A stretch of 64,000 bases of DNA from a virus (taxonomy: Duplodnaviria > Heunggongvirae > Uroviricota > Caudoviricetes), in the IMG/VR virus record IMGVR_UViG_2721755660_000001, one strand, 5' to 3'. Position numbers: made by a program. This document shows, piece by piece, positions 9,001-12,000 of the stretch (positions are counted from its first letter, which is position 1; the number at the start of each line of letters is the position of its first letter).

Positions 9001-12000
9001 TGTTTACCGTCAGCCCCTCGCAAAGAGCTGCTGGTAAATCGCTTTGCCATAATTGCCGCTCTTCCTGAGCCCGCCTATGGTCCGACGCATGGTTTACTGT
9101 CGCGCCGTTCGACTGACCAAATCTCCACTTCGCCGCTGGCTAACTTCGCTCAGCTGTCGATGTTTCGTTTCGATGGATTGATAATGTACCAATAGTTCAT
9201 TCATGTAAAGTACCATAAGTACATTTTCTGTGAATGGAAAGTTCATATGCAATTATCTTTATGAACTTTAAGGAGAAATATTTTTGAGTTTTTTATTGAT
9301 TGAGGCGAGGGGGGGGATGGGGCTGGTTTGATTTATTAGAGGTTCGTCACATCAACAAGCCTTGTGTGACCATTGAAAGTTGCGAAAAGTCCGCCGTCTG
9401 GCTCAACTACTGAAAGTTCAGCGTATCGAAGGAAGTCTGTTTTGATAACGGACATCAACACCTCTCCGGTATCAATGTTTATGACCTCAAGCCGGTGCGC
9501 GTAAAAATCATCTTTGTTTTTGCTGCCGGCAAACGATAGGGCGATGTAGCGCCCAAATTCAGATATGGACGAACTGATGAGGTGAGTGGAAGTTTCTATC
9601 TTGAATAACTCTTTCCCGGTGTTATCCATGACTATGGCTGCAGCCATGTTGTTGTCTTTGCCGGTATGTATAGAAAATAAAAATCGCCCGTTAACAGCTA
9701 TGCATTGAGGCTTAGGAGAAAGCTGCCCGCCGAGCTTAACCATAAACATGAATTTTTCATTCTTCAATACCGCCAGAGTGTCATCTCTGAGATTGCTTTC
9801 ATCACGCTTGAAAGCACCTAGCTGCCAACATTTATCGTGGCTTAATTTGCAGGTGATGAAGTGGTCGCCAAGCTCGTATAAGGCGCTTCCATCACTCAGA
9901 TCTGTAACCTTAATTGCTTCCATGCTTAACTTCCTCAGCTATGAAATCTGTATGCCCTTGACTGGCTTACCAGCACTTTCGCGCAGATGCGGAGAGAAGA
10001 AAAATCACCATCTTCGATGTACCAGGTTTCATATTTTTTATTGTCTGAAATCACAGCTAATTTTTTGTGCTGCTTTTGAAGTCGCTTTATGTAGAGATCA
10101 TTGTCCAGAACGAAAATGTATATGCCGTCACCGTCAAAGCAGTCGATGCTGACGTCGACGAAGATCTGGTCTCGCGGCTCGAACGTGCCAGACATCGAAT
10201 CGCCATTCACGGCAATCATTTTTATGTGGTCAGCTGGGCGCCCACCAAATACGGCGCGAGCCTCTTCGGTTGAATACTCTATGGATCGTATTGTTTCAAT
10301 GAACTCATCTCGCACAAGAATTCCTTGCCCAGCGCTAGCTTGAATATCAAAAACGTCTACACGGAAAGAATCGTCCCTCATTGCCATATGCCCTTCAGAT
10401 ATGCCATCTGCTGCACTATCGCCTAATAGGTAAGACGAGGATGTGCCAATTATAGCCGCCAGTTCCTGCAGCTTGCCACGTCTTGGAATAGCCTCCCCAT
10501 TGAACCACTTGCTTACCGCTTTAGGCGTGAGCTTCATTCGCTTGGCTATTTCAGCCTGACGTCCATGAGCAGGTAAACCAGCTTTATCACAGGCCAGCGC
10601 TAGCCGTTGGGAAAACTCTTTACGCGCTTTTTCTTCTTGAACCATAGGTTCAATCATAATATCACTTGCGTGAACTATCAGTTCCGACATAATATGTACC
10701 TACAGTTCAATTTGAGGGTTAACAAATGCAACCTAAGAACCTTGGCGACATCATCAAGCAAATCCGTGTACCGGTGGTGGCGAAGGCTTGCGGGCGCACT
10801 CCCCGCGCTATCTACAAGTGGATTAACAGCGGTTGCCTGCCGCGTACCGATTACACCGGCGAAACAGGTTATGCGTCCAAAATCGCAGCTGCATCTGGTG
10901 GTCAGTTTACCGAGAACCAGATCCTTGAAATCAGTAAACCAAAAGCCGCTTAACGGCGGCCCTAACCACGAAAGGGAAAGAAATGCATTCACTTGCGTAT
11001 CAACAGAGTAGCGGACTTGAACAACGTCCGTTGATTTCGATTTATCAAAGTGTTCCGCGTAATAACCGTAAGCTAACTCGAATACGGGAGGCAGTTAAGG
11101 CCTGGCAAAAAGCTACGCCGGGCCAGTCTCAGGTTCACATTTCTCAGCTGGTTGCGAAAGAGTGGCTGGCGCGCGGCGGGAAGGGGTTGTTACTGGCAGG
11201 TTCTGAACACAACACGAAGCAGAACTTCTTCCGGATGATTAACGATCCGGGCCCGAAGAACGACAAGGGGTTGATGCTACTGATCCCCGTCATTATCGAC
11301 GTGATGGCGCGGGATAACGAGAAAGTGGCGAGAGAGTTCGGTCTGGTCGCAAAGACTGAGGCCGAACTGATAGCCGAGGCCATGAAAGAGTGCACTGAAG
11401 CGCATCAGGCGAAGTTACTTGGTCAGCCGATACAACGCCTTGAGAAAGAGGTGAGAGAAGCTGCTGAAGCACTGCTGCGCTTCCTGCCAACTGAATCAAT
11501 CGCTGCGGTGGTGACAAGTCTGGCCGCTATGGCGCCGGGAGTTATGTGATGGGAAGTATCAAAAATGGCGAAAGCCAGTCTGCGCGAACAGAACTGGCCT
11601 TCAAATGCAAATCGTGTGCACTCATTGCAGGAGGAATAATGGCAAAAAAACCACGCTATTTCCATACCGCTGTACATAAAAACATTACCCGCGACCGCTT
11701 CATCCGCTCGGTTAATCCGATTGTGGCAGAGAAGATGCGCGCCATTCTGGAAGAACTGAAACGTAAGGAGAGTGGTCGTGGATAACCTCGCAAAAGTAAT
11801 ACCTTTCAGACCGTCTGTAACGGTCGTGGAGCGTCAGGTGGCAGATATCGATGATGGGTATACCCGCATCGCTAACGAGCTGCTGGAAGCGGTTATGGCT
11901 GCTGATTTAACGGCTCGCCAGCTGAAGGTCGTTCTGGCGGTGATCCGCAAAACTTACGGGTTCGGGAAAAAGTTTGACCGCATTACCAATACCCAGATTG

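Follow-up and report, generated by a model that had tools for sequence, protein, structure and literature searches.

The site directly downstream of the repressor gene is a conserved home of two prophage defence systems, BstA and lambda RexAB, and the repressor gene cI ranks with the most strongly transcribed genes of a prophage during lysogeny (Owen et al. 2021, PMC8585504). More generally, it is common for prophage immunity regions to contain defence systems (PMC12724215). Here we describe a gene in this position, orf195, which lies on the minus strand at 9336..9923 of a 64,000-nucleotide stretch of DNA from a Caudoviricetes virus (IMG/VR record IMGVR_UViG_2721755660_000001; the whole stretch is called the window below). 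The gene encodes a 195-amino-acid protein, listed in RefSeq as 'hypothetical protein' (WP_033817245), that is predicted to be a soluble four-bladed partial beta-propeller. We find that orf195 is a discrete presence/absence cargo cassette and, judged from context only, a credible candidate phage-exclusion protein. A literature search found no paper on orf195, and its accession was not found in the papers searched or in the DefensePredictor supplements.

The slot of lambda RexAB is identical to that of orf195, being downstream of and co-oriented with cI and upstream of the leftward operators and promoter (OL/PL), with transcription from the PRM promoter in the lysogen presumed (PMC8585504). However, Rex consists of two proteins, including the multi-pass membrane protein RexB, whereas orf195 is a single soluble all-beta protein. 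BstA of Salmonella phage BTP1 (PMC8585504) is likewise encoded by a single gene directly downstream of a prophage repressor, and a true BstA occupies this same slot in one of the loci that we surveyed (L112). BstA differs in its length of ~300 amino acids, its KilA-N-type N-terminal region and its aba self-immunity DNA element; orf195 has no BstA match and another predicted fold. In a third example, gp15 of HK97 (PMC3594210) shares its slot with those members of the orf195 family that lie in tail modules, but gp15, a small protein of the inner membrane, acts by blocking the entry of DNA, whereas the orf195 family has no transmembrane segment. Lastly, Tai (tail assembly inhibition; PMC11364771) and similar binders are single small proteins from prophage moron loci that confer protection by binding a structural protein of the invader and have no toxin domain. 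Although we detected no sequence relationship between Tai and orf195, effector-less binding of this kind is, by analogy, the class of mechanism that we would expect. With respect to SieB and other exclusion proteins, orf195 has no similarity to the PHROG or NCBIfam families annotated as superinfection exclusion. In the literature, the propeller-containing or immunity-region defence proteins that we compared (the propeller-Mrr system of Vassallo, Tai, GiPD474 and HepS) all proved to be different, unrelated proteins.

The reading frame of orf195 is intact over 195 codons, from the ATG at 9923..9921 to the TAA at 9338..9336. Only 11 nucleotides separate the cI stop codon from this ATG, and both genes are on the minus strand. 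A Shine-Dalgarno sequence, GAGGA, can be read at 9932..9936 (minus strand), 8 nucleotides 5' of the ATG; it overlaps the cI stop TGA (9937..9935), as is visible in TGAGGAAGTTAAGCATG, and the junction of the two genes runs ...CATAGC TGA GGAAGTTAAGC ATG. A sequence-only reading of this DNA, made before the present analysis, had placed the gene directly downstream of and co-oriented with CI and had noted a good ribosome-binding site and no recognisable motif. All of this is borne out, and searches of Pfam, PHROG, PADLOC and NCBIfam gave no match above noise (best PHROG E-value 0.26). At the amino acid level, the protein is 84-99% conserved in prophages of E. coli, Citrobacter and Enterobacter and 30-52% conserved in other Enterobacterales and in Vibrio. 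Using the pairwise Nei-Gojobori method on five orthologues (ten comparisons; synonymous divergence, dS, up to 0.79), we obtained ratios of non-synonymous to synonymous divergence (dN/dS) of 0.06-0.18 in nine of the ten, which indicates purifying selection; the tenth, a close pair with few substitutions, gave 0.31. The same method gave 0.01-0.07 for the neighbouring cI, and non-synonymous change is about 3-fold faster in orf195 than in cI. Given its conservation across prophages and its low dN/dS, orf195 is a genuine gene under purifying selection and more than a chance open reading frame. GC content is 0.43-0.47 over orf195 and comparably low over cI, whereas the early and replication genes on either side have 0.52-0.57.

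Mapping of the operators fixes the position of orf195 within the immunity region. The upstream neighbour, cI (9935..10690, minus strand, 251 codons), encodes a LexA-like S24 peptidase with a helix-turn-helix domain according to Pfam and PHROG (Peptidase_S24, 2.4e-18; HTH_3, 1e-7; PHROG 'transcriptional repressor', 9e-51), and it is of the HK022 type, with 58% amino acid identity to the cI of HK022/HK75 in a tblastn comparison. Six palindromes of the form TGAAC/TGTAC-N5-GTTCA/GTACA occur in the region, three at the cI/cro boundary and three just downstream of orf195. From repeat families D1/D5 and the sequence, the first set corresponds to OR3, OR2 and OR1 (10638-10652, 10671-10685 and 10695-10709); from repeats D5/I5/I13 and the sequence, the second corresponds to OL3, OL2 and OL1 (9245..9231, 9223..9209 and 9199..9185, minus strand). 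The promoter scan places PL (TTTACA 9209..9204, 17 nucleotides, CATTAT 9186..9181, minus strand) leftward and away from orf195, and the OL/PL set as a whole (9181-9245) is unchanged in four related phages. On the other side, PR (TTGCGT 10666-71, 16 nucleotides, CATAAT 10688-93, plus strand) reads into cro, which lies downstream of it at 10726-10953 on the plus strand. PL overlaps the OL set, and PR and a PRM-like promoter overlap the OR set; together they form the classical OR/PRM/PR and OL/PL layout, and orf195 lies between cI and OL/PL, that is, in the lambda rexAB slot, so the position assigned by the sequence-only reading is exact in this respect. Its second parallel, to P22 sieB, fails, as that gene is immunity-adjacent but outside this slot: on the maps of P22 and lambda, its place is past PL, towards N/24.

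The scan yielded one PRM-like promoter (10653..10681, minus strand; CTGATA-17-TATGAT), the sole candidate upstream of cI and orf195. Between the two genes, neither the promoter scan nor the sequence itself offers a promoter-like site, space for one, or a terminator. Because orf195 lacks a promoter of its own and starts so close behind cI, co-transcription of both genes from PRM is most likely, and it is the only arrangement that the sequence offers. The PRM-like -10 element is ~7 nucleotides before an ATG at 10645, which is Met16 of the long cI reading frame and lies inside OR3. Based on this spacing, the true start of cI is probably ATG 10645, on a leaderless mRNA. The lambda cI mRNA is also leaderless. 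The 15 codons before Met16 coincide with OR2/OR3, and this overlap may explain their conservation.

The junctions on both sides of orf195 can be read directly from relatives that lack it. Citrobacter phage Omnitron (cI 94% identical in amino acids) and a prophage of E. coli ET846 (cI 85% identical in nucleotides) are homologous to the window from cro through cI to 9928/9932, lose homology within ~10 nucleotides of the cI stop and regain it at 9284/9292, from where it covers the three OL operators and PL, nearly invariant. The missing segment amounts to orf195 plus ~45 nucleotides, a single open reading frame filling the cassette, which the blastn breakpoints and junction alignments delimit to 9285..9927 (~640 bp). 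We call orf195 a cargo cassette because exactly these ~640 bp are missing from two phages whose cro-cI and OL/PL are near-identical to those of the window. We also fetched 80 IMG/VR loci that encode relatives of this cI, tabulated 75 of them (five near-duplicates were left out) and recorded how far the OL motif lies from the cI stop. The slot holds orf195 in 33 loci whose cI is at least 96% identical (offset +709 to +711), and it is empty (offset +115 to +149) in L113 and in four loci with cI 94-96% identical (L098-L101). Where cI is 55-63% identical, the cargo is different and the offset reaches up to ~2 kb. This other cargo includes the true BstA in L112 (PADLOC 9.7e-124), a KilA-N/BstA-like protein in L118 (BstA match 2.7e-20), a HicA toxin (Pfam 3e-10), a HipA-like kinase, several proteins of 136-154 amino acids without assignment, and membrane proteins. 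In the HK022-type repressor family, the slot between cI and OL is thus a hotspot rich in cargo. Precise-junction presence or absence among close relatives, one mark of a moron in the sense of Hendrix and Juhala, is seen here, as Omnitron, ET846 and L098-L101 are without orf195; a promoter and terminator of its own, another mark, are not seen in the clade of copies that follow this cI (clade A, below), where the cI operon serves instead. As a side observation, the slot states across L098-L145 comprise empty, orf195, BstA, BstA-like KilA-N, HicA(B), HipA-like kinase, small membrane proteins of two kinds, and at least four unknown families of 136-154 amino acids (for example in L102, L114, L128/L139 and L131).

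The orf195 family is tiny and confined to prophages of Enterobacterales and Vibrio. A tblastn search of 50,697 phage records matched only two Klebsiella phages, full HMMER scanning of 1.84 billion representatives turned up 11 matches, three of them generic WD40/PQQ repeat proteins, and a profile search of 5.8 billion proteins gave 18, all of 149-231 amino acids. Clade A (195 amino acids, at least 84% identical) is found in E. coli, Citrobacter and Enterobacter, and all 36 copies examined directly follow the same cI (allele 96-100% identical in amino acids). Clade B (192 amino acids, ~43-52% identical) is found in Klebsiella, Salmonella, E. coli, Pluralibacter, Lonsdalea and Vibrio, and a third group (195 amino acids, ~30-33% identical) includes a Providencia member. 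The members examined outside clade A all lie between the tail chaperone and the tape-measure gene, a position that in HK97 belongs to gene 15, the founding 'moron', whose product is a superinfection-exclusion protein (PMC3594210). This tail slot is a variable island: KilA-N, pRha and P22-Ant-type (P22_AR_N) antirepressors, Arc/Mnt repressors and umuDC-like genes adjoin the homologues, as do unrelated genes for small lipoproteins or secreted proteins, and strong intrinsic terminators stand right before the tape-measure gene in L010 and L014. In L009, the homologue comes fifth in a compact operon that opens with mnt-like and arc-like repressor genes and lies behind a TTGAAG-17-TATCAT promoter. 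This operon is a second independent link of the family to a lysogeny-maintenance promoter.

The E. coli prophage that carries orf195 has this tail module too. It extends from a tRNA-Arg gene (47858-47932) leftward to ~1.8 kb, with int at ~46.5-47.7 kb, and its tail slot holds a gene for a 119-amino-acid signal-peptide protein (34213-34572; MKKVFILGLGLLSFYVSASE), flanked by the DUF6246 chaperone (33349-34107) and the tape measure (34658-36988). This gene is a typical moron at the HK97 gene-15 position. Since the tail module is the same as in the loci with tail-slot homologues and the cargo in it is different, one phage lineage has two cargo slots, and the orf195 family has been captured by both.

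Several further observations concern the family loci. In L151, a umuD/umuC-like pair (S24 peptidase and Y-family polymerase; 1579-3254) lies upstream of the homologue in the tail island. In two distantly related loci (L002 5257-5908 and L009 2372-3104), the homologue is preceded by a gene pair that is absent from the others, encoding a CxxC...CxxC protein (phrog_4293), which is 31% identical between the two loci (1e-17), and a coiled-coil protein of XhlA/holin-like type that has a C-terminal transmembrane segment (phrog_6324). A three-gene system with this zinc protein and XhlA-like protein is unsupported, as no loci other than L009 and those of L002 type have the pair; we also rejected the idea of conserved partners downstream in the tail slot, the genes there being mutually unrelated. 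The apparent membrane anchor of the 231-amino-acid member P0026 (L010 6001-6696) is a start-codon artefact caused by a GTG upstream of the real ATG at 6115, an internal start with a GAGGA site that fits the N-terminus of the family. The gene call of P0025 (L014 5963-6549) is likewise mis-started and truncated, and its real start is 5963.

The sequence-only reading had called the gene unannotatable and had named structure prediction as a check. For the sequence the description is apt; for the predicted fold it is not. With a 20-sequence alignment, AlphaFold2 gave a confident model (predicted local distance difference test, pLDDT, 91.8; predicted template modelling score, pTM, 0.88) that is all-beta, with 17-18 strands making up four four-stranded blades plus one or two extra strands. 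The blades are antiparallel and stand in a radial array, and orf195 is thus confidently predicted to be a soluble four-bladed partial WD40-like beta-propeller. A single-sequence AlphaFold2 model was poor (pLDDT 63.5), and its Foldseek matches said only 'propeller'; it is superseded by the alignment-based model. In BFVD the only matches were generic giant-virus proteins of the WD40, kelch and BTB kinds, and no PDB sequence scored under E = 0.08 in a profile search. Pfam gave no WD40/PQQ repeat match, and the matches to propeller proteins in the other sequence searches stayed below threshold. Internal repeats are weakly detected when orf195 is compared to itself with hhalign, and conserved Ser/Thr-His and Glu positions resemble structural motifs of WD40-type blades. 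We compared the model with WD40/PROPPIN-type and partial propellers (HIRA 5yje, Atg21 6rgo, WIPI2 7mu2, the designed Ika4 6g6q and the five-blade fragment dimer 6r60). WD40-type propellers are usually closed rings of 6-8 blades, whereas orf195 has four blades in its 195 amino acids. Because the model superposes over long stretches on seven-blade rings, it implies an open arc and not a closed four-blade ring, and such an arc would probably need oligomerisation, for example as a dimer that forms an eight-blade ring. The protein is mildly acidic and has no signal peptide and no transmembrane or hydrophobic segment (grand average of hydropathy -0.08; isoelectric point 5-6.6), and we find in it no catalytic, toxin, nuclease or effector domain.

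Reading its function from context only, we tentatively propose that orf195 is a lysogen-expressed protein-binding cargo that interferes with superinfecting phages, a role that we would place a little short of probable. An HK022-type lambdoid prophage would have acquired the cassette horizontally, at a point between its cI stop and OL3. Judged from the anatomy, and by analogy to lambda cI-rexA-rexB, orf195 would share the PRM transcript of cI, with production continuous in the lysogen and off upon induction. The protein may then act stoichiometrically as a binding scaffold that captures a protein of the superinfecting phage, or a host factor which that phage needs, and so blocks its development. 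The resident phage could escape either because its own target differs or because orf195 is off in lytic growth. We favour an anti-phage role because the cargo that can be identified in this slot consists of defence or toxin genes, because the alternative slot, in the tail, is a known exclusion-gene slot, and because orf195 is dispensable for the switch. The gene had been put forward from sequence as a superinfection-exclusion or abortive-infection factor. Exclusion has gained from the clean cassette, the defence and toxin cargo in the same slot and the second moron slot; suicide-type abortive infection has become the less likely of the two, since the predicted protein is a soluble 195-amino-acid scaffold without an effector domain, to which interference appears better suited. 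Several observations weigh against an anti-phage role. No defence model in PADLOC resembles orf195, the defence argument is one of guilt by location, and such hotspots also carry non-defence cargo. The gene is present in 6 of 5426 complete E. coli genomes, a rarity which implies that selection for it is not widespread. A simple promoter scan of the clade B genes found no clear autonomous promoter, and no intrinsic terminator was found 3' of orf195. Finally, the profile search of 5.8 billion proteins turned up no fusion to another domain, and the family loci contain no conserved partner gene or fusion that points to a pathway. We also consider, more doubtfully, that orf195 may found a new single-gene anti-phage family, in which a standalone half-propeller made from the repressor operon would assemble into a ring and sequester a component of siphoviruses that are entering or replicating, and which would have been captured independently by the two (or three) lysogeny-expressed cargo slots of a single phage lineage.

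The same cassette anatomy and the same lysogen-linked slots would be in keeping with lysogenic conversion outside defence, in which the half-propeller binds a host protein and alters stress tolerance, envelope or colonisation to the benefit of the lysogen. Moron slots do house non-defence genes, such as lambda lom (PMC3594210), and neighbouring cargo in the tail slot includes secreted proteins and lipoproteins. But the identifiable cargo next to cI is of defence or toxin type (BstA, HicA, HipA-like), and orf195 is cytoplasmic and has no export signal, unlike most surface-acting conversion factors; we regard such a role as unlikely. A modulator of the prophage's own lysis-lysogeny switch, acting through binding of cI, RecA* or an antirepressor, might be suspected from the constant company of one cI allele in clade A (36 of 36 copies) and from the antirepressor-like genes (KilA-N, pRha, P22_AR_N) or Arc/Mnt repressors that clade B and distant copies often adjoin. 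However, a single recent insertion alone would link orf195 to one cI allele, the cI of the clade B phages is only 62% identical, and the switch evidently works without orf195 in phages that have 94-96% identical cI and identical operators and lack the gene (L098-L101, Omnitron). This makes a switch modulator somewhat more improbable than a conversion factor.

Small binders without effector domains are typical of anti-defence proteins, and the faster non-synonymous change of orf195 relative to cI is what a counter-defence (anti-immune) protein, neutralising a host defence system by binding, might exhibit. Anti-defence genes, however, are normally early, whereas from the anatomy a PRM-driven gene would be on in the lysogen and off lytically, and the tail operon late, so that we think counter-defence very unlikely. 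The spot upstream of the tape-measure gene is kept across members that are only 30-50% identical and come from several genera, as would suit a tail-assembly or virion accessory of the DUF6246-type siphovirus lineage, the cI-adjacent copy being a displaced relic. Yet the window's prophage has the same tail module with another gene, that of the 119-amino-acid secreted protein, in the slot, and the family is missing from most phages of the lineage. In addition, the clade-A copy is under purifying selection inside a lysogeny operon, and the terminators before the tape-measure gene mark inserted cargo. A tail accessory is in our view the least probable of these alternatives, though only slightly less so than counter-defence.

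Other features of the window touch orf195 less directly. Just beyond PL, a gene of the ECs_2282 family with a good ribosome-binding site encodes a CxxC zinc-ribbon protein on the plus strand at 8683-8904 (called at 8431-8904 by the Prokaryotic Genome Annotation Pipeline, PGAP; NCBIfam 8e-24; weak match to PADLOC PDC-M14A, 6e-6). It is convergent with transcription from PL and is overlapped in antisense by a 115-amino-acid minus-strand open reading frame (8644-8991) that has a weak PHROG match only. Because it accompanies clade-A orf195 in just 6 of 36 loci, this gene is separate variable cargo, and a two-gene system of orf195 and the zinc-ribbon gene was rejected on the same count. No N-like antiterminator gene is present after PL (8000-9180), and no Rfam elements were found in 7500-12000; an HK022-type repressor might lead one to expect antitermination that is RNA-based (put-like), or else a Nun-like gene. 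In the early-left region, the MT-A70 methyltransferase gene (4018-4677) is a pseudogene with an internal stop in RefSeq. The prophage is inserted at tRNA-Arg (CCT), beside yfdC, and beside int (~43002-47932) are two acyltransferase genes, probably for O-antigen modification, and one for a short S24 peptidase.

The repressor-adjacent site has already yielded RexAB and BstA, and orf195 is a clean and rare insertion there. Its family has no annotation, no PHROG and no solved relative, and in the literature we found no report of a four-bladed partial propeller as a standalone prophage defence. We see in orf195 a family that is new and uncharacterised, at a hotspot whose kind is already known, and a good experimental candidate rather than a surprise. 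The slot of the HK022-type cI family, seen occupied, empty and with alternative cargo, is itself a well-defined hotspot and could be mined for further cargo. If orf195 does protect against phages, it would represent a new effector-less binder mechanism in a compact protein, one whose target could be found through escape mutants.
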